Positions 2,899 to 15,090 of a stretch of 26,735 nucleotides of DNA are shown here, piece after piece. Each line of letters begins with the position of its first letter. The stretch's first letter is position 1. Made by a program: the position numbers and the translations under genes. This DNA is from an uncultured Thermococci archaeon (lineage in GTDB: Archaea > CAYQAE01 > CAYVLA01): the NCBI GenBank assembly GCA_964549615.1, contig CAZJVP010000041.1, positions 1 to 26,735 on the forward strand. The letters run 5' to 3'. The notes beneath the pieces were generated by a model that had not been told where the DNA came from, ran no database searches, and saw nothing but the letters and a program-made list of their open reading frames with translations.

Positions 2899-3714
2899 CT
2901 ATAGATAGGTTCGGCCTTCGAAGGACAGGGCGGCGGGGCCTCGGATCACGGTCTGCCTCCGGAGAACCACTTCGAGGGAGCCCCCGGGCATCTGAACCCG
3001 CCACTCAGCTTGGGACGGCTCCATCTGGCGGGCCGCCACGGCAGCGGCGATGGCCCCGGACCCACATGCCAAGGTCTCGCACGCGCCACGCTCGTGCACC
3101 CTCATCCTCAGGTTGCCGCTGGAGATCCTGTTGACGAACTCCGCATTGATCCCGCCGGGTTTGAAGTCGTCGTGGTGTTCGAGCGCATGCCCTATGCCCT
3201 CCACATCGATCGATGAGACATTCCGGTTCACGAAGGTCACGGCGTGTGGATTGCCGACGTTCACCAGATGGTAGACCAGCGCCCTCCCACCGGCCGTGAT
3301 GCGTCTTCGTCCCTCGTATCTTGGCCTGATGTCGGTCACTGCTTCGACGGTTGCCTCCAGCTCGTTTCTGGGTTCAATGATCTTGGTTCTCACGATCCCG
3401 GCAGGAGTCGCTATATCGATCTTGTCGGGCCGACCCGGGTCCAGCCTCAGATGCAGGGCAAGTGAGACGCATCGTATGCCGTTTATGCACATCTCGGCCT
3501 CTGAGCCGTCCGCGTTGAATATCCGCAAGGACACGCCCTTGTCACGGGGACCTACGAACAGGACGCCGTCAGCGCCGACCCCTGTGTGCCTGTCGCAGCA
3601 CCTCAACGCGAAGTCCGACTTTTCGGCTTCGTCCACTTGCTCCCCGGCCCTCTCGTCGATAAGGATGAAGTCGTTGCCCAAACCATGCACCTTCAAGAAG
3701 TCGACACCGACCAT
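2899..3714 (-). CDS. dapF: Diaminopimelate epimerase
   Basis: KVHGLGNDF, GVGADG, NADGSEAEMCINGIRC, VGNPHAV and ERGACETLACGSGA; both catalytic Cys are present. Confidence 0.95.
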   Translation of the reverse strand: MVGVDFLKVHGLGNDFILIDERAGEQVDEAEKSDFALRCCDRHTGVGADGVLFVGPRDKGVSLRIFNADGSEAEMCINGIRCVSLALHLRLDPGRPDKIDIATPAGIVRTKIIEPRNELEATVEAVTDIRPRYEGRRRITAGGRALVYHLVNVGNPHAVTFVNRNVSSIDVEGIGHALEHHDDFKPGGINAEFVNRISSGNLRMRVHERGACETLACGSGAIAAAVAARQMEPSQAEWRVQMPGGSLEVVLRRQTVIRGPAALSFEGRTYL

Positions 3715-3723
3715 AGTTGGCCC

Positions 3724-4890
3724 CTAGAACTCAAGATTTTCTATGCGGGAGCAGGCTTCCCTGGTCCGACGCAAGCTCGGCACCAGTGCGAAGCGGACGA
3801 ACAGGTCCCCTGCCGTTGTGGCCTGCGAGAGTGCCGTGCCGGGAACGGTGTTGATGTGGGCGTTGGACAACAGGTGCTGAGAGAAACGTACCGAGTCGTA
3901 GCCCTCCGGTGTCCGAGCCCAGACATAGAAGGTCGCTTCGGCATACACCGATTCAAGCCCGATCGACTTCAGGCTTCGAACTAGGGCATCGCGCTTCTCC
4001 CTGTACTGTTGCCTCAATCGCGTGACATGAGCCTCGTCCGACAACGCCGCAACGGCGGCATCCTGAATGAACGTAGGTACGCCTGAGTGAACCTGTGTCT
4101 GCACCTTCTTGAAGGGCGAAAGGAGATCCTTCCTTCCGGCTACGAACCCTATCCTGTAGCCCGTCATGCTGCTTCTCTTGGAGAGGGAGTTGAACACAAG
4201 GGATACCTCGTCAGCGCCCTGGACCGTCAAAACGGAGGTCGGCCTCTCGTCAAAGAAGATCTCGGAGTAGGCTTCGTCGGAGGCGAGGAGAATGTGGTGG
4301 TCGGCACAGAAGTCCACCGCTTCTTTTAGGAATTGCCGGGTGGCGATCTTCGTCGTCGGGTTGTTTGGGTAGTTAATCCATAGGAGTTTTGCCTTCTTCA
4401 GCTCGGACGATGGCACGGCCGATAGATCGGGAAGAAACGATCTCCCCTCCTCTAGCGCCAAGTACAAGCACCTGCCCTGCCTTGCCATTGTGCCAGCGGT
4501 GTAGGGAGGATAGCCAGGGTCGGGGACGAGCACGACGTCCCCGGGGTCAACGTAGGCGAGAGGCAGGGTGAAAATGGCCTCTTTGGAACCGAGGGTGGCA
4601 GTGAGCTCCTCGTTTGGATCTAGGGAAACGCCGAACCTTCGCTTGAACCACCGCGCCACCGCAGATCTGAATTCCCATGAACCCTGGTAGCTGGGGTAGC
4701 CCGAACACGCCCTCTTTTCGACGGCCTTCTTGCATGCCGATCTCACGATATTCGGCGTCGGTGAGGCAGGGTCGCCCACCCCGAAGTCGATGATATCAAT
4801 TCCCCTGCGCTCAAGTTCGTCTTTCGCTTTGTCGATCTCGGCGAATGCATACGGACGCATCTCTTTGATGAAGCTGCTCGGAGCTATCAA
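3724..4890 (-). CDS. dapL: PLP-dependent class I aminotransferase, probable LL-diaminopimelate aminotransferase
   Basis: DFGVGDP, GSKEAI, PDPGYPPY, NYPNNPT, DEAYSE and SLSKRSSMTGYRIG; adjacent to dapF. Start moved to TTG 4890 because the track start overlaps the upstream gene. Confidence 0.8.
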   Translation of the reverse strand: MIAPSSFIKEMRPYAFAEIDKAKDELERRGIDIIDFGVGDPASPTPNIVRSACKKAVEKRACSGYPSYQGSWEFRSAVARWFKRRFGVSLDPNEELTATLGSKEAIFTLPLAYVDPGDVVLVPDPGYPPYTAGTMARQGRCLYLALEEGRSFLPDLSAVPSSELKKAKLLWINYPNNPTTKIATRQFLKEAVDFCADHHILLASDEAYSEIFFDERPTSVLTVQGADEVSLVFNSLSKRSSMTGYRIGFVAGRKDLLSPFKKVQTQVHSGVPTFIQDAAVAALSDEAHVTRLRQQYREKRDALVRSLKSIGLESVYAEATFYVWARTPEGYDSVRFSQHLLSNAHINTVPGTALSQATTAGDLFVRFALVPSLRRTREACSRIENLEF

Positions 4891-4903
4891 CGCAACCCAC
4901 AAC

Positions 4904-5686
4904 CTATGCGTAGAGGCTTGAGTAAGGACGCCTCCCTTTGGGAACAACCTTGGTGAACTGGTTTGCCGCGATTTCCTCGGACAGCCCAAACATCTGCCCA
5001 AACTTCTCAATCTGAGCCTTCAGGTACGTCAGGTCCGGCGACTGGAGAGGTGCGACCTCTGCGCCCTCGCCCAGTTGCTCACGGGCAAAGGCGCCGCGTA
5101 TGTAGATGGTTCCGCCATGGATGCCGGTACCGATGAAGGACATCCTGTGTTTCCGATTGCCCAAACCCAACACAACCACCCTACCGCCAGCCATGTACTC
5201 GCCGAGGAAATCCCGGGCAGTCCCGCCTATCACGATTGAGGGAAAGGTCCGCCCGTATTCCTTCATGTGGAGGGCGGCCCTGTACCCGGCATCATCCCTG
5301 ACCAGGATGGAGCCTGCGACCATCGACATTCCCAGAACGTCCCCGACCCTTCCCTCAACGATTATCTCGCCTCCATGCATGGTGTTCCCCACTCCGTCCT
5401 GGGCATTCCCATGAACGAGAATAACATGCCCATCCATGAAGGCTCCGAGATCGTTGCCGGGGGTTCCAAATATCTCGATGCTGACCGGGGGAAGTCCGTT
5501 CAGCCTCGTTCCTATGTACCTCTGCCCGTATACGCGCCGGAGGACTATCCTCCTTACCCCTTTGTCGGCGGCAAGCTTGATTCTTTCGTTTAGCTCCTTG
5601 AAAGAGGATCCAAGGGCGTCGATCTCTGCATCGGGGAAGTCGTACGATGCCCTAATGTCTCCGAGGATGATCGAGTTTGCCATCAC
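4904..5686 (-). CDS. Glutamate synthase GXGXG beta-helix subunit (GltB domain 3)
   Basis: GQRYIG, GTPGNDLGAFMDG, GNAQDGVGNTMHGG and FLGEYMAGG; its start overlaps the upstream stop codon (GTGATG). Confidence 0.92.
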   Translation of the reverse strand: MMANSIILGDIRASYDFPDAEIDALGSSFKELNERIKLAADKGVRRIVLRRVYGQRYIGTRLNGLPPVSIEIFGTPGNDLGAFMDGHVILVHGNAQDGVGNTMHGGEIIVEGRVGDVLGMSMVAGSILVRDDAGYRAALHMKEYGRTFPSIVIGGTARDFLGEYMAGGRVVVLGLGNRKHRMSFIGTGIHGGTIYIRGAFAREQLGEGAEVAPLQSPDLTYLKAQIEKFGQMFGLSEEIAANQFTKVVPKGRRPYSSLYA

Positions 5687-7224
5687 TGTCCAGCTCCCTT
5701 CACCCCGAGGACCTCAAGCTCCCAGTCGGAGAGCCCCACGCCGCGGAGGTGTTCTCGATTGCCCCTGAGGCTCTCGATGGCGTTGATCCCCATCCCGCCG
5801 AGCATCTCTTTGATCTCCAAGGACCAAGCACACAGAAGGCCGATCAGGCGCCTGGACACTATGTCGGGGTTTATCCTCTTGGATAGGTAGGGATCGGTGG
5901 TGCAGATCCCCCAGTTGCAGATCCCCGTGTGGCATTTCTGGCACAGGGTGCACCCCATTGCAACCAGGGCCGCCGTCCCAATGTACACGGCATCGGCGCC
6001 GAGGGCTATCGCTTTGACGACATCCGCGCTGCACCTGAAGCCCCCAGCCACCACCAAGGAACACTGGTTCCTTATTCCTTCTGCCCTGAGCCTTGAGTCC
6101 ACCGAGGCGAGGGCCATCTCGATGGGCACGCCAACGTTGTCCCTTATGACCTTCGGCGCGGCGCCCGTGCCGCCACGGATGCCGTCTATGGCAACCACGT
6201 CTGCTCCCGCCCTGACTATCCCGCTGGCGATCGCAGCGGCGTTGTTCACCGCGGCAATCTTGACGGACACCGGCTTTTCGTAGTCGGTAGCCTCCTTGAG
6301 CGCATATATCAGCGTCCTGAGGTCCTCGATGGAGTAGATGTCGTGCTGCGGGGCGGGTGAGAGCGCGTCCGTCCCAACCGGGATTTTCCTAGCGGCCGAT
6401 ATGCTCTTGGATACCTTCTCGCCGGGAAGATGGCCCCCGATGCCGGGTTTGGCTCCTTGGCCTATCTTAATCTCCACCATGGCCGAGCAGCGGAGGTAGC
6501 CGGGGTCGACCCCGAACCTCCCGGATGCGCACTGCACTACGGCATTGTCGGCAAACTTCCTCAGGCCCCTGGGCAGACCGCCCTCTCCCGAGTTGAAGAG
6601 CGTTCCGACGGCCTTGGCCGCCCGGGCTAGGGACTCCTGTGCCTGAGCGCTGACGGCGCCATAGCTTAGCGCGGAGAACATGACGGGCAGCTCGATCCGG
6701 ACCTGCGGGTCGCCGTTGACGGGCTGCCCATCAACGATCTCCAGTCTCCTTGGCTTGCGCCCCAAGAACGTCCTCAGTTCCATCGGCTCCCTCAAGGGAT
6801 CGATGGACGGGTTCGTCACCTGCGAAGCATCCAGCACAAGGTGGTCCCAGTAAACTCTCATCGGCTTATCGTTTCCGCACCCCGTCAGCAGCACACCTCC
6901 CGACTCGGCCTGGCGTTTTAGGTCCGTGATCCTCTCTCGCGTCCAATAGAAGTTTGGTGCATACGAGTACGGATTGAGCCCGACCGTTATTGCGCCCGTG
7001 GGGCACAGAACGGCGCATCTCTGGCAACCGGCGCACTTGCTCTGATCGGAGATCATCCTATCGGCTACTTCGTCGTAGGTGTGAACCCCGAATCCGCACT
7101 GGCGGGCGCACACCTTGCACCTTATGCATCTGTCCTCGTCGCGTTGAACCTTAAACTCCGGCAGCAGCTGAGTCGCCAGCGTTCTCTCAGGCCCCCTCCT
7201 CCTCGTAGCATATGCCCTGTCCAA
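5683..7224 (-). CDS. gltB: Archaeal-type glutamate synthase FMN-binding subunit with N-terminal 2x[4Fe-4S] ferredoxin
   Basis: CIRCKVCARQC and CAGCQRCAVLCP, QVTNPSIDPLRE, SGEGG, EIKIGQGAKPGIGGHLPGEKV, HDIYSIEDL and CTLCQKCHTGIC. The true start may be CTG 7179. Confidence 0.95.
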   Translation of the reverse strand: MDRAYATRRRGPERTLATQLLPEFKVQRDEDRCIRCKVCARQCGFGVHTYDEVADRMISDQSKCAGCQRCAVLCPTGAITVGLNPYSYAPNFYWTRERITDLKRQAESGGVLLTGCGNDKPMRVYWDHLVLDASQVTNPSIDPLREPMELRTFLGRKPRRLEIVDGQPVNGDPQVRIELPVMFSALSYGAVSAQAQESLARAAKAVGTLFNSGEGGLPRGLRKFADNAVVQCASGRFGVDPGYLRCSAMVEIKIGQGAKPGIGGHLPGEKVSKSISAARKIPVGTDALSPAPQHDIYSIEDLRTLIYALKEATDYEKPVSVKIAAVNNAAAIASGIVRAGADVVAIDGIRGGTGAAPKVIRDNVGVPIEMALASVDSRLRAEGIRNQCSLVVAGGFRCSADVVKAIALGADAVYIGTAALVAMGCTLCQKCHTGICNWGICTTDPYLSKRINPDIVSRRLIGLLCAWSLEIKEMLGGMGINAIESLRGNREHLRGVGLSDWELEVLGVKGAGQ

Positions 7225-8305
7225 CCCGGCCGATCACCGGGACGCCGCCTAGAGGCGACCAGACGCGTTCAAGATCCCCGTCCACTAGCCTAATGGGGGC
7301 CTCTTCCGAGGCAAGATAGAGCCTGCCGTTGCCCGTCGCGGCTGTCAGAGGCCTCAGCTTGATCCTGTCCGTCAACCCGATCATCTCGCCTTCGCGGCCG
7401 ATTATCACGGAGAAGGGTCCGTTCAGGAGAAGTCCGGAGTAGCTGATCCTGAGGGAAGAGTAGAGCGCTTTCTTGGACTCGGGCATTCCGTCGATCTTCA
7501 CCCAAACGGGCGGAGCGAGCACCTTACACGCCATCTCGACGCCAAGGCCGTGGCGCCTGACAAGCAGATCGATGGCGTAGGCCACGACCTCGGTATCCGT
7601 GAAGAAGTTGCACCGGTATCCGTAGTCCTCCACGAACCTCTTGTTGGCGCCGTAGCTCGATAACTCCCCGTTGTGCACGACCGCCCAGTCAAGAAAGCTG
7701 AATGGATGAGCCCCTCCCCACCATGCCTGCGTATTTGTCGGGAAACGCCCATGGGCAAGCCATATGTACCCCCGGTACTCATCAAGCACGTAGAACTTGG
7801 CGATATCCTCGGGAAAGCCAACACCCTTGAAGACCCCCATGTTCTTGGCGCTCGAGAACACGTACGCGTCCTTCACCGTGGTGTTGATGCGGGTGACCTC
7901 CCTGGCCACCAGCTCCTGGAATCGCACTCCATCCTCCGAAGGAGGCCTGACGAAGTATCGCCAGAGCATCGGGCCGTTCGTCACGCCGTCCTGTGGGTTG
8001 GTGGGGATCTCCTCAGCGTGCACAACATCAAAGTTCCTGGCAAGCTCGGCCTCGGCGAGCTCCTTTCCGTGCGCGGACTCGTACATCACGTGGAAAGCAT
8101 AGTCCTTGGGACGGCTTGGATAAAGTCCATATATCGCAAAGCCAGCTCCCAGGCCATTTGACCTTTCCCTCATGTTGGACATGGCCTCAAACACGGGTTG
8201 CCCTTCGACGCAGCGCCCCCGCAAATCCATCATTCCGAATATGGAGCAGCTCCCGATGACCTTGTCATCGCGGTAGGGATTGCTGCGTTTCTCAAGGTCC
8301 AACAA
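7187..8305 (-). CDS. Glutamate synthase class II glutamine amidotransferase subunit (GltB domain 1)
   Basis: GSCSIFG (Ntn Cys), ERSNGLGAG, AHGRFPTNT, AHPF, VHNGELS and TDTEV; GGAGGGAGG lies 9 nt before TTG 8305. Confidence 0.92.
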   Translation of the reverse strand: MLDLEKRSNPYRDDKVIGSCSIFGMMDLRGRCVEGQPVFEAMSNMRERSNGLGAGFAIYGLYPSRPKDYAFHVMYESAHGKELAEAELARNFDVVHAEEIPTNPQDGVTNGPMLWRYFVRPPSEDGVRFQELVAREVTRINTTVKDAYVFSSAKNMGVFKGVGFPEDIAKFYVLDEYRGYIWLAHGRFPTNTQAWWGGAHPFSFLDWAVVHNGELSSYGANKRFVEDYGYRCNFFTDTEVVAYAIDLLVRRHGLGVEMACKVLAPPVWVKIDGMPESKKALYSSLRISYSGLLLNGPFSVIIGREGEMIGLTDRIKLRPLTAATGNGRLYLASEEAPIRLVDGDLERVWSPLGGVPVIGRVGQGICYEEEGA

Positions 8306-9572
8306 CCTTTCCAGCCTCCCTCCACAGCCGTTGCCTCTCCCTTCTGGAGAGATACGCAAGCCCGAAGCTGTCCGACAGCAGGACTCGGTTGAGCCTCTTG
8401 ACCGGGGTTCGATTTCTCATCATCTGTAGGTACAGTCCGGCCTTATCCGCCGCCCCGACGAGCACGAACCCCTTGATGACCCCATCTTTGGTGACTATCT
8501 TCCGATACGTGCCGTCCGCCTCGGACTTAAGCTCAGACCACCCGTCGCCATCGACCGGGTTCACGATGCCTGCGCAAAGAACGGATCGTCCGAAGATACT
8601 GATCGAGTTCATGGAAGTGAACCAGCGCGATGACGCCTCGTGCCCGGCCATGTTGCATCCGGCGATCATGCCACCAACGTAGGCAACGGGCCAGATCCCT
8701 AACACCCTGCTGCCCTGGTACACAAAGTCCTGCACCTGGGCACAGTCCCCAGCAGCGAATATTCCTGGGACATTTGTCCTCATCCCATCGTCCACAACCA
8801 CCCCCCTGTCCACCCGCATGCCCGCCTCCCGCGCCAGCTCGACGCGGGGTCTGACACCTATTGCGAGGATGAGCAAGTCGCTATCGATCATCTCTCCGTT
8901 GTCGAGCGTCGCCCTGGGCCTCCCGCGGCTTCCCTCAACCCTCGCTATGGTGTGCCCGGTCACCACTCTGACCTGTCGCTCGTCCAGATCCTTCCGAACG
9001 ATGGCAGAGGCCCTCTCATCAAGAACCGACGAAAGGATCCTCGGAGCCAGCTCCACGATCGTGACGTCCACGTTTCGCCGGATGAGTGCCGATGACGCTG
9101 CGACGCCTATCAGGCCACCGCCTAGGACGACCGCCGACGATATCTCGCTGCGGTCTAACCTCGCTTTGATGTCCAATGCATCAGCCAGCGTGGCGAATGT
9201 GTGGCTAAATTCGACCAGCCCCGGGATGGCTGGGACTATCGGGGATCCCCCGGTTGCCAGCAACAGGCTGCGGAACCCAATACGGGAGCCGTCATCTAGC
9301 TCGATCTCCTTGCCGCTGATGCGGATTGCCACGGCCTTTCTCCCGCCAAGAAACTCCACATTATTTTCTTCGTAAAACGATCGGGGTCGGTACCAAAGCT
9401 CGTCCAAGGTCATCTCACCGGATACGAGGTGTCCGATGAAGGGCCTAGAGTAAGGAGGGTTGTTCTCCTCCGCGACGAGACAGATGGATGCGTTGCTGGC
9501 CATCCTTGCCAGGGCCTCAACAGCCCCTACGCCCGCGGCGGAGTTGCCCACGATGACACTGTCGTATCTCAT
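8292..9572 (-). CDS. FAD-dependent NAD(P)H oxidoreductase (NirB/rubredoxin-reductase-like)
   Basis: IVGNSAAG, PPYSRP, LLLATGG, VLGGGLIG, TNVPGIFAAGD; ATGA overlap with the upstream ferredoxin gene. Confidence 0.9.
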   Translation of the reverse strand: MRYDSVIVGNSAAGVGAVEALARMASNASICLVAEENNPPYSRPFIGHLVSGEMTLDELWYRPRSFYEENNVEFLGGRKAVAIRISGKEIELDDGSRIGFRSLLLATGGSPIVPAIPGLVEFSHTFATLADALDIKARLDRSEISSAVVLGGGLIGVAASSALIRRNVDVTIVELAPRILSSVLDERASAIVRKDLDERQVRVVTGHTIARVEGSRGRPRATLDNGEMIDSDLLILAIGVRPRVELAREAGMRVDRGVVVDDGMRTNVPGIFAAGDCAQVQDFVYQGSRVLGIWPVAYVGGMIAGCNMAGHEASSRWFTSMNSISIFGRSVLCAGIVNPVDGDGWSELKSEADGTYRKIVTKDGVIKGFVLVGAADKAGLYLQMMRNRTPVKRLNRVLLSDSFGLAYLSRRERQRLWREAGKVVGP

Positions 9573-10000
9573 TGACCATCAATCTCCAGGCTTATCGCTT
9601 GGTTCGGGCAGTGTTCAACACAGGCCGGGATTTCTCTAGACGGGCACAGGTCGCACTTCACGGCAAAACCAGGGCCTCTCCACACCGCCCCGAAAGGACA
9701 GACCAGGATGCAGGTCCAGCAAGCGCGGCACCTCGACGTCTCAACCCTGATCACCCCATCTTCGTCCCTCCTCATCGCGCCGGATGGGCATGAGTAAACG
9801 CACGCGGGTTCCGCGCATTGTCTGCATTGAACCGGAAACGTCACCGGTCTCCTTTCCTCGACTCTGACTCGGGGCGGTGGTGGTTCGGTCTGGTTAAAGC
9901 AGCGGATGAGGTTCTTCGATTCGGAGTGCTCCACCGCGCACCATATCTCGCAGAGGTGGCACCCGATGCAAAGGTGCTCGCGAACCGTAAGCCTTGACAT
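9569..10000 (-). CDS. 4Fe-4S dicluster protein (CooF/HycB/DmsB-like)
   Basis: CIGCHLCEIWC, CRQCAEPACVYSCP, CRACWTCILVCP and KCDLC...PACVEHCP. Confidence 0.93.
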   Translation of the reverse strand: MSRLTVREHLCIGCHLCEIWCAVEHSESKNLIRCFNQTEPPPPRVRVEERRPVTFPVQCRQCAEPACVYSCPSGAMRRDEDGVIRVETSRCRACWTCILVCPFGAVWRGPGFAVKCDLCPSREIPACVEHCPNQAISLEIDGQ

Positions 10001-10024
10001 GCGAATTACCGGAGTGGGGACCTA

Positions 10025-10101
10025 GTTCATACGGTTGGACTAGAGGCCCGAAAACTATTTACGTATGAGACTACGTCGGCATACGGGATGAATGTATGAA
10101 C
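10025..10101. promoter_or_regulatory. Divergent promoter region with CATAC/GTATG operator-like repeats
   Basis: CATAC at 10028 and 10080, GTATG at 10063 and 10094. Perfect CATAC-N9-GTATG at 10080-10098; BRE/TATA-like CGAAAACTATTTA at 10049-10061. Confidence 0.6.
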
Positions 10102-10168
10102 CTCCTCGCGCGCCAGGCCCGAGGAGGATCTGCTCGGACATTGCTTTAGGGCAATCATCCCAGGCGAG

Positions 10169-11203
10169 ATGACCGTGCAAGATGTGCTAACGGAATATCG
10201 CAAGGTCCAGGTCCTGGGCAGGTCAAGCTACGCCGTCACCCTTCCCAAGTCGTGGGTCAAGGGGCTTGACCTGCACGCGGGATCGGTTGTTGTCGTGACC
10301 GTCGACGGCAAAGGCATGCTCCACATATTGCCGGAGAGCTTGCAGAAGCAGAGGGAAGTGCCCCTTGAGAAAGTCCTCGACACAGCGAGGCTGTCGACCC
10401 CGGGGGCTCTCGCCCAGGCAATAAGGGCTTGCTACAGGATCGGCTACGAGACGATACGCGTCAGCCATCAAGGGGGAGCATCTGCAGGTGTCGTCGCGCA
10501 GATCCACGACGCCGCGGAGTCACTATACGGAACGATCATAGTCAGCGAAACCACAAACGAGACCGTCCTACAAATCTCAATCAATGTGGGAACCTTCACC
10601 GTCAGGGCGCTCATATCAAGGATGAACTCCTTCTTTGTCTACCTGACCAATCAGGTGAGGCAGGCCCTTCAGAAAGGCAGCCTGGACGACCCGGCGGCCG
10701 TGGCCTACCGTGCAAGGGAGGTCGATAAGGTCTACTCCTTGCTGATCAGGCAGCTGGTCCAGGGAGTCCGAAGCCAGCAGGTGGCATCCAGGGTTGGCCT
10801 CCAGGACGTGATCCAGTCTCTTGGATCTAGGATGGTGGCCAAGGCTCTCAGGGATATGAACACGAGCATGATCATGATCTCCCGTGTCGTGGGCGACGCC
10901 GCAAGGGGAAAGAAGGAGCATATAGAACAGATGGTGAACCTGATCTCGGAGCTGCAAGACCTGTACAAGAAGGCCTATGAGGCGCTGCTGAAGGAGGACA
11001 TCAAGAAGGCCGCCGAGGTCCTCCAAGAGCAGGAGCTCTTCCGCTCCGAGGTCGCCCGATTCGAGAGATCCCTCTCGACGGCGCGGGACGAGGGCAGCGT
11101 CGTATCGGCCATGGTCTCCGTTGTGTGGGAGCTTCAGAACGTGACCAACTCGGTTGTGATCCTAGCGGAGATCGCGGTGAACCGATACGTGGAGAGGGAG
11201 TAG
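10169..11203 (+). CDS. Archaeal AbrB/SpoVT-PhoU transcriptional regulator
   Basis: N-terminal RKVQVLGRSSYAVTLPKSWV (AbrB fold), ACYRIGYETIRV, EVDKVYSLLIRQL and helical PhoU repeats. Confidence 0.9.
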   Translation: MTVQDVLTEYRKVQVLGRSSYAVTLPKSWVKGLDLHAGSVVVVTVDGKGMLHILPESLQKQREVPLEKVLDTARLSTPGALAQAIRACYRIGYETIRVSHQGGASAGVVAQIHDAAESLYGTIIVSETTNETVLQISINVGTFTVRALISRMNSFFVYLTNQVRQALQKGSLDDPAAVAYRAREVDKVYSLLIRQLVQGVRSQQVASRVGLQDVIQSLGSRMVAKALRDMNTSMIMISRVVGDAARGKKEHIEQMVNLISELQDLYKKAYEALLKEDIKKAAEVLQEQELFRSEVARFERSLSTARDEGSVVSAMVSVVWELQNVTNSVVILAEIAVNRYVERE

Positions 11204-11209
11204 GTCGGC

Positions 11210-12355
11210 TCACCGCGCTTCGATGATCGCCCGCAGGCACTCAAGAAGCCTTCGGTTCTCCTCCTTGGTCCCAACCGTAATCCGGATGCAGTGGTGGCAC
11301 AGCCCCGGGACTCCTCGTAGATCCCTCACAAGGATGCCGGCCCGGCAGAGCTTCTCGGGCAGATCAGGGATCTCGGGCGATATCCTTGCCATTATGAAGT
11401 TCGCCTCCGACGGATACGGGCTTATGCCATCCATCCGCGAAAACTCCTTCATCAACGCTGACCTTTCGCTAAGTACCTCGTCTCGCACCCTCTCGTAGTC
11501 TGGGAGGCAAGACAGGGCGGCGACGGCCGCGGCCTCGGCCACTGAGCTTATGCCGAAAGGGAGTCGGATCTTCTCTAGGTCATCGATGATCGACTCGCTC
11601 GCGACCGCGTATCCAACTCTCATGCCCGCCAGGGAAAAGAACTTGGACATTGAGCGAGCGACGATAAGGTTTGGATATTCGCGAACCTTTGGGATCGCTG
11701 AACGACCTGCGAACTCCGCGTAGGACTCGTCGAGCACGACAAGCCCCTCGGCCCCTTCCAGTATCCTTTCAAGGTCATCCCCACCCACGGTTCCGCCGGT
11801 AGGGTTGTTGGGAGAACAGAGGAATGTGACCCTTGCATCGGATGCCTGGGAGAGGACGGCCGTGGAGTCGACTCTGAAATCGGGCTCCTTCGTTTCGATG
11901 GCAACTATCCTTGCGTCTCGAAGCATGCCGAAAAGCGCGTACAGGGAGTAGGAAGGGGAGGTCACGGCGATCTTATCCAGGGGATCCAGGAAGACCTTGC
12001 AGACCATGTCTATTATCTCGGCGCAGCCGTTCCCGACGGCGATGTTGTCGACCGGCTGCCCCAGATACCGCGAGAGCGCCTCCTTCAAGTCCCGATACCC
12101 TGGGTCAGGGTACCTGTTCGCCGCGGCGGCAGCGCGTGCCATCGCCTCTACAACCGGCTTGGGCGGAGGATACGGGCTCTCGTTCGAGGCAAGGTCAACA
12201 ATGGCCTCCCCGGGGATGCCGTACTTCTCAGAGGCATCACGGGGGAACATGCCCGGGTCGTATGGCTCTATATAGTCCAACGCGGGCCGATGCGCCCGGA
12301 AAGACCTATCCCAGGGTCTCCTCCAAGGATTCAAGTTCGGATTCGATCTCCTCAA
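11210..12355 (-). CDS. hisC: Histidinol-phosphate aminotransferase-like (HisC/CobD family); start codon uncertain
   Basis: LASNESP, NRYPD, GNGCAEII, CSPNNPTG, DESYAEF, RSMSKFFSLAGMRVGY and SEANFI. Confidence 0.8.
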   Translation of the reverse strand: MRRSNPNLNPWRRPWDRSFRAHRPALDYIEPYDPGMFPRDASEKYGIPGEAIVDLASNESPYPPPKPVVEAMARAAAAANRYPDPGYRDLKEALSRYLGQPVDNIAVGNGCAEIIDMVCKVFLDPLDKIAVTSPSYSLYALFGMLRDARIVAIETKEPDFRVDSTAVLSQASDARVTFLCSPNNPTGGTVGGDDLERILEGAEGLVVLDESYAEFAGRSAIPKVREYPNLIVARSMSKFFSLAGMRVGYAVASESIIDDLEKIRLPFGISSVAEAAAVAALSCLPDYERVRDEVLSERSALMKEFSRMDGISPYPSEANFIMARISPEIPDLPEKLCRAGILVRDLRGVPGLCHHCIRITVGTKEENRRLLECLRAIIEAR

Positions 12356-12617
12356 GCGTTGCAGCCCTGCCTTCCTTCTCCTGGATCCCTGCGGCGGACC
12401 AGAACAGCCTGGCTACGACTAGCATCAACTTGCCGGCGTATCCCGGTGCGTGGACAAGCAGGTCCGATGCAAGGTCCCCGCATTTTTCAAGGGTTTTCGC
12501 GTCCAGATCCTTGATCATCGTGCTGGCCTTGCCCAAGATGGATATCCCGGTCCCAAGGGCCTTCTCCCTTCTGACATACGCCCTTGCCGCCTCGCTAGTT
12601 ATGCGGTGAACTCCCAT
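12306..12617 (-). CDS. Hypothetical 103-aa helical protein coupled to glnA
   Basis: Strong GAGGTGAT ribosome-binding site overlapping the glnA stop; fills the glnA-hisC gap; acidic coiled-coil-like C-terminus. Confidence 0.85.
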   Translation of the reverse strand: MGVHRITSEAARAYVRREKALGTGISILGKASTMIKDLDAKTLEKCGDLASDLLVHAPGYAGKLMLVVARLFWSAAGIQEKEGRAATLEEIESELESLEETLG

Positions 12618-12626
12618 CACATCACC

Positions 12627-14084
12627 TCAGTAGTCAAGGTACTTCATTATCTCCCACGGGGTCACGTACAAGCAGTATTGGTTCCATTCCTCGATCTTCA
12701 AGCCCACGAACTGTTCGAAGATGTGGTCCCCGAGCAGGTCGACAAGCAGCTGATCGGTGCTCAGATGGTCAAGGGCATCCCTCAGAGTTGTTGGTAGTTC
12801 GCCCACCCCGAACCTCCTCTTCTCCTCAGGGCTCAGCTCGTACATGTCCTGCCTCAACGGTTCCCCCGGCTCGATCTTCTTCTTTATGCCGTCCAGCCCT
12901 GCAGCGAGCATTGCCGCGAAGGCGATGTACGGATTGCAGCTGGGATCGACGGCCCTGTACTCGCATCTGATGGCCCCCGGGCTGCTGAAGTAGAGGGGAA
13001 CCCGGATGAGGGCGCTCCTGTTCCTCGGGCTCCAACTTATGTTGATGGGCGCCTCGAAGCCCGGGACCAGCCTCTTGTAACTGTTCACAGTTGGGCAGCA
13101 CAGCGCAGTTAGGGCCTTCGAATGTTCGATGAGCCCTCCGATGTAGTATCTTGCGGTCTGGCTCAGCCAGTACTCCCCGTCGGGGTCGTAGAAGACGTTC
13201 TTCCCCTTGAAGGGTTCTCCCTTCCACAGGCTCTGGTGGGTGTGCATGCCGCTGGCGTTGTCCAGATACACGGGCTTAGGCATGAAGACCGCGATGCAGC
13301 CCCGCCTGGCCGCCAGGTTCTTGGCGGCAAACTTGTAGACGTAGCACGCATCGCCAGCCTCGATCAGCGTCCTGGGCTTGAAGTCGAGCTCGACCTGTCC
13401 GGCTGTGGCCACCTCGTGGTGGTGGAACTCGATGATGACCTTCATCTTCTCCAGCTGCCCGGCAAGCTCGTTCCGGTAATCGTTCGTGGCGTCCTCAGGA
13501 GGGGCCCGGAAGTAGGCCTCCTTGGGCCTGAGCACGACAGCTCCCGGCCTTATCTCGGGGCTTTCCGGCACGACCCTAGGAGGTCCCCAGGAGTCCCCCT
13601 TCCCGCCGTTCGGGGACACCCAAAGGTCGTACGTAAGCTTCGTGGGATCGATGCTCTCGAAAAGGAAGAACTCGATCTCCGGGCCGAAAATTGCCGTGTA
13701 GCCCATCGACTCGGCCATCTTCATCGCCTTGCTCGCCACGTAGCCCCTGGGGTCCACGTTGGAGATCGTTCCGCCGCCCTTCTCGCCGAAGGCTTCGTAG
13801 ACATCGCCGAAGACGATCGCGGATCTCTGCATGGGGTCATCTATCCAAGGCACAACTCTGATGCTGGACTGGTCCGGAACCCACACCATATCGCTTTCCT
13901 CGATGGACTTGAACCCTCGTATCGATGAACCGTCGAAGCCGATTCCCTCGCAAGCATCTCCCTCTAGGAACTCCCTTGCAGGGATCGTGAAGCTCTGCAG
14001 GATTCCCCTCAAGTCGCTGAACATGCACATGATGTTCTTGACGTTTGAGTCCTCGATCAGCTTGACAAGTTCAGGGCTTCGCAT
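12627..14084 (-). CDS. glnA: Glutamine synthetase type I
   Basis: FDGSSIRGF, ESDM, GPEIEFFLF, HHEVATAGQVE, FMPKP, NASGMHTHQS, NSYKRLVPGFEAP and NRSALIRVP. Start is ATG 14084 or GTG 14090. Confidence 0.97.
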   Translation of the reverse strand: MRSPELVKLIEDSNVKNIMCMFSDLRGILQSFTIPAREFLEGDACEGIGFDGSSIRGFKSIEESDMVWVPDQSSIRVVPWIDDPMQRSAIVFGDVYEAFGEKGGGTISNVDPRGYVASKAMKMAESMGYTAIFGPEIEFFLFESIDPTKLTYDLWVSPNGGKGDSWGPPRVVPESPEIRPGAVVLRPKEAYFRAPPEDATNDYRNELAGQLEKMKVIIEFHHHEVATAGQVELDFKPRTLIEAGDACYVYKFAAKNLAARRGCIAVFMPKPVYLDNASGMHTHQSLWKGEPFKGKNVFYDPDGEYWLSQTARYYIGGLIEHSKALTALCCPTVNSYKRLVPGFEAPINISWSPRNRSALIRVPLYFSSPGAIRCEYRAVDPSCNPYIAFAAMLAAGLDGIKKKIEPGEPLRQDMYELSPEEKRRFGVGELPTTLRDALDHLSTDQLLVDLLGDHIFEQFVGLKIEEWNQYCLYVTPWEIMKYLDY

Positions 14085-14119
14085 CTGCACTCGCCGGGAG
14101 TTCAGTCCATGATCTGCAG

Positions 14120-14131
14120 GATAAGTGTTCG
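14120..14131 (-). promoter_or_regulatory. Putative glnA BRE/TATA promoter (CGAACACTTATC)
   Basis: TTATC begins 40 nt before ATG 14084. Confidence 0.5.
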
Positions 14132-14149
14132 CAAAGGAAAACATGGCGG

Positions 14150-14168
14150 GATACTGGCAGTACGTATG
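14150..14168. promoter_or_regulatory. Operator-like palindrome GATAC-N9-GTATG between the glnA and nitrilase promoters
   Basis: GATAC TGGCAGTAC GTATG; one mismatch to the site at 10080-10098. Confidence 0.5.
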
Positions 14169-14198
14169 GGCTCAGGAATGGCAGGGCCCGGAGTCCGT

Positions 14199-14210
14199 TA
14201 AGACTTAAGA
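14199..14210 (+). promoter_or_regulatory. Putative TATA (TAAGACTTAAGA) for the nitrilase-family gene
   Basis: TTAAG begins 40 nt before TTG 14245; a GGAGG ribosome-binding site lies in between. Confidence 0.45.
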
Positions 14211-14244
14211 GCGATCCTCGACGGAGGGAGGGAGGAGGCGGGCA

Positions 14245-15090
14245 TTGAGCAAGGGAAGGATACGGGTGGCAACGTGTCAGTTTGCCGTCTCCTCCGATAT
14301 CAGGCAGAACGCGGCCACGATACGCTCGCAGATTCTTTTGGCCAAACGACGCAGGGCCGACGTGGTCCACTTCCCCGAGGCAGCCCTGAGCGGGTATGCG
14401 GGGACCGACGTGAAGAGCTGGGATGGATATCCCTGGGATCTTCTGAGGGAGGAGACCCTGGACATCATGAAGCTGGCTGGGGAAAAGAAGATCTGGGTGA
14501 TCGTCGGCAGCGCCCACCCTCTCTCGCGCAGCAACCTTCCCCACAACAGCCTTTACGCAATAACGCCCAGAGGCACGATCCAAGATCGCTACGACAAGCG
14601 CTTCTGCACGGGCCGGGACCTCGAGTTCTACTCGCCCGGGGACCACTTCACCATCTTCAGGATAGGCGGCGTCGCCTGCGGAATGCTCATCTGCTACGAC
14701 GTGAGGTTCCCCGAGATGTACAGGGAGTACAAAAAGCTCGGGGCGCAGCTTCTCTTCCACTCGTTCTACAATGCGCGCGCCAAGCGGCCGGGCATACACA
14801 AGATCATCATGCGCCCGACGCTGCAGGCCAACGCCGCGTCAAACTACTTCTGGATCAGCGCATCAAACTCGAGCGCCTACTACAGCTGGCCCAGCGTCTT
14901 CATCCAACCCGACGGGGTGATAGCCGCGCAGCTGCCCTTCAACAGACCCGGCGTTATGGTGAACGTTGTTGACACGAAGAGGAAGTTCTACGACGCCTCG
15001 AGGGCTCACAGGGAACTGGCGATGAGGGGAATCCTAAATAGCGGAAGGCTCGTTGACGACCCGAGATCCAAGGACCGCTGGTCGCTCTAG
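14245..15090 (+). CDS. Carbon-nitrogen hydrolase (nitrilase/amidase superfamily)
   Basis: Glu-Lys-Cys triad motifs FPEAAL, YDKRF and LICYDVRFPE. Confidence 0.92.
   Translation: MSKGRIRVATCQFAVSSDIRQNAATIRSQILLAKRRRADVVHFPEAALSGYAGTDVKSWDGYPWDLLREETLDIMKLAGEKKIWVIVGSAHPLSRSNLPHNSLYAITPRGTIQDRYDKRFCTGRDLEFYSPGDHFTIFRIGGVACGMLICYDVRFPEMYREYKKLGAQLLFHSFYNARAKRPGIHKIIMRPTLQANAASNYFWISASNSSAYYSWPSVFIQPDGVIAAQLPFNRPGVMVNVVDTKRKFYDASRAHRELAMRGILNSGRLVDDPRSKDRWSL

Follow-up and report, generated by a model that had tools for sequence, protein, structure and literature searches.

We describe a conserved DNA element that lies ahead of the glutamine synthetase gene glnA and of a split glutamate synthase (GOGAT) operon in an uncultured Thermococci archaeon (genome G000: 3.2 Mb, 60% GC, 104 contigs, 99.5% complete), the relatives of which are metagenome-assembled genomes labelled Candidatus Hadarchaeota. 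The window analyzed here was the whole 26.7-kb contig CAZJVP010000041.1 of this genome. We are highly confident that the element, an array built around the dyad ATAC-N9-GTAT, is a conserved operator common to ammonium-assimilation promoters. Within this family it would mark the promoters of glnA, of the split GOGAT operon, of a second glutamate-synthase-family gene and, where relatives have it, of amt-glnK. The likeliest binder would be the AbrB-PhoU protein whose gene lies between those of GOGAT and glnA, and we put at roughly even the chances that the reading as a whole, an array run by this protein at ammonium-assimilation promoters, is correct. The features on which this reading draws are the following, with the B recognition element abbreviated as BRE:

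10065–10097, minus strand: GOGAT-side operator block, from an alignment of 14 sites; contains the dyad at 10080–10098
14135–14167, minus strand: glnA operator block (ATACGTAC at 14167–14160, GTAT at 14154–14151, TGTTTTCCT at 14143–14135)
10050–10067, both directions: shared BRE/TATA-like core in the spacer between GOGAT and the regulator gene, a putative role based on 26 tRNA upstream regions
14119–14134, minus strand: putative glnA BRE/TATA-like element, GCGAAC-ACTTATCC, by likeness to the tRNA promoters CGAAACACTTAAGAG, GGAAACACTTTATAG and GAGAACACATTTTACAG
10169–11203, plus strand: gene of the AbrB-PhoU regulator, 344 amino acids (PF04014, PhoU fold)

Conservation and genome-wide specificity of the operator block

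A preliminary description of this DNA had reported the dyad CATAC-N9-GTATG at two places, and its positions proved right: a perfect copy (CATACGGGATGAATGTATG) occupies 10080–10098 and a copy with 1 mismatch (GATACTGGCAGTACGTATG) occupies 14150–14168. Two extra half-sites described beside the first copy are likewise present, CATAC at 10028–10032 and GTATG at 10064–10068, but the former is not conserved. The latter is part of TTTACGTATGA, with ACGTAT retained in 8 of 10 distinct related promoters and the sequence AAACGTAAT found in its place in G003/L029.

The comparison covered 11 related loci, with regulators 56–85% identical to that of the window, namely three family genomes (G001, G002 and G003; 56–61%) and eight metagenome contigs (59–85%). 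When read in the direction of the gene, the glnA and GOGAT promoters were found to have in common a gap-free block of ~33 nt, ATAC[G/T]T..Y....CGTAT-N7-T[A/G]nTCTCAT (14 aligned sites, which omit the GOGAT promoters of L028, G003 and L029). The ATAC and GTAT columns of this block carry 1.4–2.3 bits and are invariant or nearly so, as compared to 0–0.8 bits in the flank and spacer columns. The block was retained in all seven glnA promoters and in 7 of the 10 distinct GOGAT promoters, and at glnA it begins (ATACGTA) 81–83 nt ahead of the ATG in 7/7 related sequences. Conservation of the motif in orthologous promoters, which the preliminary description had anticipated, was thus borne out by sites that align without gaps and keep their position while their flanks vary.

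In the window, the GOGAT block is made up of ATAC at 10097–10094, GTAT at 10084–10081, a degenerate ACGTAG box at ~10075–10070 and TCTCAT at 10070–10065. Overall, the operator is an array of ATAC/GTAT-type boxes set in steps of 9–10 bp, in the order of a full palindrome ATACGTAY, a GTAT half-box that together with it forms ATAC-N9-GTAT, and, at 19 bp from the palindrome, a weaker box. This array sits directly upstream of the BRE/TATA element. It is worth noting that the longest open reading frame (ORF) of glnA starts at 14144, leaving 6 nt to the motif, and is 20 codons too long (14085–14144, minus strand). The extension has TTG in close relatives and stop codons in more distant ones, and a shared start, MRSPE/MERQE, was observed; the real glnA start is therefore the ATG at 14084, and the motif is truly intergenic. 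An automatic annotation with the long ORF would bury the operator in 'coding' sequence. A search of 9800–14400 against Rfam at E values up to 1 gave no match, hence no known RNA element accounts for the conservation.

The preliminary description had also proposed a genome scan for the literal CATAC-N9-GTATG, with hits expected at further nitrogen genes. Such a scan of G000 showed no enrichment over background, with one perfect match against 1.7 expected and 35 one-mismatch matches against 56 expected. Within the window, sequences with at most 1 mismatch were found twice against an expectation of 0.33, and at least two matches arose in 4 of 100 shuffles. Scans of G000 for ATACGTAT and TACGTATG returned 8 and 24 matches, respectively, mostly unrelated to nitrogen genes. 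The literal motif would thus fail the scan proposed for it. It is conservation across relatives, together with the extended matrix, that gives the element its significance; the 10 specified bases by themselves do not.

To score the extended block, a weight matrix was built with G000 left out, using 12 sites from other genomes, and G000 was scanned with it on both strands (6.42 million positions). The glnA site ranked first (31.4 bits) and the GOGAT site second (30.0 bits), followed by a site at C44:5647 (20.0 bits), with the next match at 15.3 bits. Matrices derived from glnA promoters alone placed the GOGAT site 4th among the 6.42 million positions; with GOGAT promoters alone, the glnA site came 5th in the 33-column version and 3rd in the 17-column one. 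Among the 13 other top matches inspected, 10 were inside ORFs of more than 400 amino acids, the remainder being C95:303, C67:23139 and C99:103395. The third-ranked site at C44:5647 lies upstream of a 543-amino acid gene of the glutamate synthase family (GltB-like; PF01645, E 2.9e-15). Tandem ATAC-N9-GTAY dyads, offset by 19 nt, were observed in the GltB-like promoters of G000, G001 and G002, and a covariance model that was built from the 14 sites on sequence only matched, beyond its training sites, only the GltB-like promoters in G000 and G002.

The preliminary description had further predicted amt and glnK as targets. Neither Amt (PF00909) nor P-II (PF00543) was found in G000, though glutamine synthetase and GOGAT are present in this nearly complete genome, and no amt or P-II gene was found in G001; genes for both occur in G002, G003 and G028, the last a genome from outside the family. 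The prediction found support in G002, where amt-glnK follows the GOGAT cluster and has a promoter with two perfect ATACGTAT palindromes 19 nt apart. In that genome ATACGTAT occurs at control frequency (34 copies versus 33); five of the 34 copies fall in the amt, GOGAT and glnA promoters, and a sixth copy on the same contig (G002:C7:59421) is inside an ORF. Taken together, the two promoters of the window share an operator, as had been claimed, and further nitrogen genes are marked by it, the GltB-like gene in G000, G001 and G002 and amt-glnK in G002.

The AbrB-PhoU regulator and its linkage to nitrogen genes

The regulator consists of a swapped-hairpin AbrB/SpoVT domain (residues ~10–55), a small alpha/beta domain (residues 67–138) and a six-helix domain of PhoU fold (residues 145–343). 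The first of these, which is MazE-like, matched PF04014 with an E value of 1.6e-9 (38 bits versus a cut-off of 24.7), and the AlphaFold model of the protein (predicted local distance difference test, pLDDT, 79.9) has beta-strands at residues 10–55. The match to PhoU (PF01895) was sub-threshold, at 21.5 bits versus a cut-off of 23.5. The six-helix domain aligned with the PhoU structures 1t72, 1t8b and 4q25 at template modelling (TM) scores of 0.80–0.84 over ~205 columns; as modelled, the C-terminal domain is a PhoU domain by fold and not by the curated sequence cut-off. A profile of the regulator gave no match at E values up to 1 among the sequences of solved structures.

The regulator gene was found between GOGAT and AT2-glnA, AT2 being a class I/II aminotransferase gene, in 11/11 related loci (3/3 family genomes and 8/8 metagenome loci). 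AT2 adjoins the regulator in every locus long enough to show it, and also in G028. The latter genome holds the best regulator match outside the family (31% identity, E 2e-50; all others 2.7e-31 or weaker), and the gene there is convergent to a cluster of amt-glnK-amidohydrolase-glnA-small ORF-AT2. Just upstream of the G028 AbrB-PhoU gene (L023 8771–9019), three direct repeats of TCTTATATAGTTT with a period of ~15 nt were observed, which are possibly an operator of that regulator's own.

A quick maximum likelihood tree of 69 proteins (IQ-TREE) grouped the 10 nitrogen-linked rows in one clade, with a Shimodaira-Hasegawa-like approximate likelihood ratio test (SH-aLRT) value of 99, and placed 5 pst-linked rows and 4 G000 paralogues elsewhere. 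Synteny and phylogeny, proposed earlier as a check on the nitrogen role, hence agreed: 11/11 regulators are linked to glnA/GOGAT, G028 adds another, and the clade stands apart from pst-linked proteins. The absence of pst genes near the window regulator was likewise confirmed by the gene calls. The premise that AbrB-PhoU proteins usually accompany pst genes did not hold, since one of the five G000 paralogues is beside pstS and since, among 47 related loci taken from species representatives, five have pstS or phoU nearby (within 8 kb) and four are linked to glnA. The pst-linked paralogue on C84 (G000:C84:40072–40920), which is divergent from the sole pstS of G000 and near a canonical phoU, shows ~22% identity to the window regulator. 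Within a collection of 5.8 billion proteins the clade corresponds to 16 clusters at at least 56% identity, some of them named 'phosphate uptake regulator', an annotation that is probably wrong for this clade.

Other archaeal lineages were examined for both components. The dyad was found in 0/12 of their glnA promoters, and none of 13 fetched loci had an AbrB-PhoU gene within 8 kb. The glnA promoters of L115, L116, L117 and L124, which belong to other archaeal families, contain repeated TTCATAA / TTTCATAAA words and no ATAC-N9-GTAT; these words may be the operator of a different nitrogen regulator.

Promoter context, proposed mode of action and rival readings

The upstream regions of 26 G000 tRNA genes, which show an A-rich BRE (e.g. 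GAAA) followed by ACTTAAGA, ATATTTAA or ACATTTTA, served as the benchmark for promoter elements, and against it the placement of the dyads relative to BRE/TATA-like elements held as first described. At glnA, the dyad precedes this element by ~22 nt and the ATG follows it by 35 nt. In the GOGAT/regulator spacer, GAAAAC-TATTTAC (10050–10062, plus strand) fits the tRNA promoter pattern and faces the regulator gene, and most of the related promoters retain GAAAtAT(a/t)TTTACGTATGA. The regulator transcript is predicted to start at ~10080–10085, inside the dyad. On the minus strand, the position of the GOGAT BRE holds the box CATACGTAA (10067–10059), a repeat of the operator half-site; no other TATA-like element was seen for GOGAT at 10000–10055, and the operon probably uses the TATA of the regulator in reverse, as far as can be judged from sequence. 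More distant relatives possess a second, proximal promoter-like element of the regulator (AAATACATAAATAC), after which an ATAC..GTA box precedes the start codon; the ATAC...GTA box between the proximal TATA-like element and the start codon was observed in G001, G002, G003, L030 and L031.

Two further elements were observed in this spacer. A GC-rich hairpin, CCTCCTCG-N11-CGAGGAGG, occupies 10101–10127 (plus strand), between the dyad and the regulator start. Its folding energy is below that of shuffled sequences by ~2.5 standard deviations in G000 and ~4.5 in G001 and is unremarkable in most other relatives, and different GC-rich hairpins occur at a similar place in relatives. A C-rich element (CCCCACTCC, CCCACCCC) at 10010–10022 (minus strand) is conserved in most relatives; it lies ~12–20 nt ahead of the start codon of the first GOGAT gene and is unlike a Shine-Dalgarno sequence.

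According to the reading that we favor, the AbrB-PhoU protein would bind the array as a multimer via its two-fold symmetric AbrB domains and would help to recruit basal transcription factors, leading to activation of the nitrogen promoters. The position of the array upstream of the BRE/TATA element argues for recruitment, i.e. for activation. In the GOGAT/regulator spacer one TATA would serve both directions, with a good BRE toward the regulator and an operator box in the place of the GOGAT BRE; since the regulator transcript is predicted to start within the dyad, occupancy of the dyad would lower transcription of the regulator and favor GOGAT. The nitrogen signal, either a metabolite or a protein partner, would reach the regulator through its middle and PhoU-fold domains. 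That the syntenic AbrB-PhoU protein binds the operator seems to us somewhat probable, and the activator-plus-autorepressor mode, with its directional switch at the shared TATA, is put forward more tentatively, as a proposal that may well need revision. We also consider, as a broad conjecture that is rather unlikely to hold in full, that a lineage-specific AbrB-PhoU branch might act as an archaeal master nitrogen regulator, also in a genus lacking P-II, Amt and NrpR, which would sense nitrogen through its PhoU-fold/middle domain and flip the shared regulator/GOGAT TATA, alongside a 103-amino acid protein that might be a partner of glutamine synthetase.

A number of observations weigh against the favored reading. 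Across the genome the literal 10-base motif is no more frequent than background, and the phyletic correlation of the dyad with the linked regulator amounts to a single origin. The aligned sites represent ~3–4 independent lineages of one family, so that site counts overstate independence. The GOGAT promoters of G003/L029 and L028 deviate, with GTAT repeats in a different arrangement, the spacing from block to TATA differs by ~3–6 nt between glnA and GOGAT, and the upstream regions of the GltB-like and amt genes in G003 showed no clear box. The nitrogen cluster of G028 contains neither ATAC-N9-GTAT nor TACGTA; therefore, either specificity has diverged or the link of regulator to element is looser than proposed. 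The protein would be tied to the element by association, and the sign of regulation would follow from position.

In a first alternative, the operator is real but is bound by another factor encoded elsewhere, with the AbrB-PhoU gene linked for some other reason (e.g. through the TCTCAT box or the control of AT2 and the small gene). We regard this alternative as unlikely on balance, even though position is the sole tie between AbrB-PhoU and the boxes and G028 has the regulator without the motif, because no regulator gene besides AbrB-PhoU was found among the window genes and the boxes occur in the promoter region of the regulator itself in every lineage. The second conserved part of the block, T[A/G]nTCTCAT, could be a separate site, and the glnA-small gene-AT2 clusters of other lineages have TTCATAA repeats and no linked AbrB-PhoU; nevertheless, the dyad was seen only with a linked orthologue (7/7 versus 0/12 glnA promoters). 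The swapped-hairpin AbrB fold forms a two-fold symmetric dimer, and such a dimer suits a short palindrome such as ATACGTAT.

A second alternative keeps AbrB-PhoU as the binder and makes it mainly a repressor, which by analogy to NrpR would oligomerize from the strong palindrome over the BRE/TATA element when nitrogen is plentiful. AbrB-type proteins are mostly repressors, and a box does lie on the GOGAT BRE position, while the proximal dyad of the GltB-like promoter abuts its TATA-like element and the glnA BRE/TATA looks strong unaided. However, the glnA array and the amt array of G002 end ~20 nt or more before TATA, without overlap, and the poor BRE on the GOGAT side would be typical of activator-dependent archaeal promoters; we see only a small chance that repression is the main mode. 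Finally, similarity by chance or as a functionless leftover of a duplicated promoter can be set aside as highly improbable, in spite of the background frequency of the literal motif and the 4/100 shuffles, given that position and sequence are kept at 56–85% regulator identity while neighboring columns vary (a divergence that also rules out very recent common ancestry as the cause of the alignments), that a matrix from other genomes ranks the window sites 1st and 2nd, and that the element recurs at GltB-like and amt promoters.

Neighboring genes and known nitrogen regulators

The gene calls of the window, comprising the split GOGAT operon, the AbrB (PF04014)-PhoU gene, the aminotransferase, glnA and the CN-hydrolase, were upheld by Pfam, and the order of the GOGAT-operon genes is retained among relatives. 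The remaining features are as follows:

2899–10000, minus strand: split GOGAT operon (Pfam), encoding a 4Fe-4S protein, an FAD/NAD oxidoreductase, GATase_2, Glu_synthase and GXGXG, then an aminotransferase and dapF
9569–10000, minus strand: gene of the 4Fe-4S protein, first of the GOGAT operon (Pfam)
11210–12355, minus strand: AT2, class I/II aminotransferase (Pfam), convergent with the regulator gene
12306–12617, minus strand: unannotated gene of a conserved helical protein of 103 amino acids (MGVHR...PGYAGKL...RLFW), filling the 271-nt 'gap' between glnA and AT2
12627–14084, minus strand: glnA, glutamine synthetase type I, 485 amino acids (Pfam), with the start corrected by comparison with 6 relatives

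The start of AT2 is uncertain, because its listed TTG overlaps the 3' end of the 103-amino acid gene by 50 nt (12306–12355, minus strand); as judged from the letters of this region, translation probably begins further downstream (TTG at 12280 or ATG at 12250). On the other side of glnA, the CN-hydrolase gene is divergent from it and has a good BRE/TATA-like element of its own (TTAAGACTTAAGAG) at 14197–14212 (plus strand), ~30 nt from the glnA dyad. The distance between the two genes in relatives is 450–730 nt, hence co-regulation of glnA and the CN-hydrolase gene is unlikely to be general.

The 103-amino acid gene has a ribosome-binding-like site, GGTGAT, directly after the glnA stop codon. 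Between G000 and G028 its product is 64% identical, as opposed to only 44% for glnA. The gene was detected in 21 of 401 sampled archaeal genomes, and in 18/22 loci, from at least eight families, it is directly 3' of glnA; a search of the phylum of G028 reached G028 alone. The protein fell into no Pfam family, had no match in the ESM Atlas and gave none among known folds at an E value of 0.001 or better. A predicted complex with glutamine synthetase scored 0.00 (mark 0.32), which counts neither way, and the protein is a candidate partner of glutamine synthetase or a candidate nitrogen-signalling protein.

Most of what is understood about archaeal nitrogen control concerns NrpR, P-II proteins and a small number of Lrp-type factors, and for most archaeal phyla we know of no nitrogen regulator. 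The AbrB-PhoU proteins rank with the most numerous transcription factors predicted for archaea. A full-text literature search found no paper in which the control of nitrogen in archaea was linked to a factor of the AbrB or PhoU type, and no characterized AbrB-PhoU member with a defined operator, regulon or nitrogen role. In P. furiosus, PhoU has been counted among the largest transcription-factor families, with 7 PhoU-family factors (PMC6316755). What is new here is a proposed nitrogen regulon tied to a transcription-factor family for which no characterized member was found. With its precise operator, its four target promoters and its candidate protein, the locus makes the proposal testable with a synthetic gene and short DNA fragments.

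A close parallel is NrpR of methanogens, likewise an archaeal transcription factor, which acts through inverted repeats at the promoters of glnA and other nitrogen genes and has a small ammonium-assimilation regulon. NrpR differs in combining a winged helix with NRD domains, and no member of its family (PF01995) turned up in G000, the control search being positive in two methanogens. The operator consensus of NrpR is GGAA-N6-TTCC, whereas the conserved blocks here read ATAC-N9-GTAT, in agreement with the earlier claim that the motif is distinct. Moreover, NrpR operators lie at or downstream of TATA and repress, in contrast to an array upstream of the BRE/TATA element.

Among bacteria, TnrA/GlnR of Bacillus (TGTNA-N7-TNACA) and NtcA of cyanobacteria (GTA-N8-TAC) resemble the proposed system as dedicated nitrogen regulators with dyads of 17 and 14 bp, respectively, at glnA, gltAB or amt promoters, and in that a single factor can be an activator at some promoters and a repressor at others, that of its own operon among them. 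They belong, however, to the MerR and CRP families, recognize other half-sites and follow bacterial promoter logic. Signal input via glutamine synthetase (TnrA/GlnR) or via 2-oxoglutarate and PipX (NtcA) can serve as an analogy only for the window regulator.

With respect to protein family, the window regulator shares with the AbrB-PhoU proteins named 'phosphate uptake regulator' its three-part architecture, length, PF04014 domain and PhoU fold, and is set apart from them by its separate clade, by the lack of pst genes nearby and by a PhoU match below the Pfam cut-off. With B. subtilis AbrB and archaeal Sso7c4, the latter reportedly a swapped-hairpin DNA binder, it has in common an N-terminal looped-hinge/swapped-hairpin dimer as the DNA-binding surface, as well as multimeric binding to extended sites as proposed here. 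B. subtilis AbrB has a loose sequence preference and no PhoU domain, unlike the present case, in which sharply defined boxes are accompanied by a protein with two more domains.

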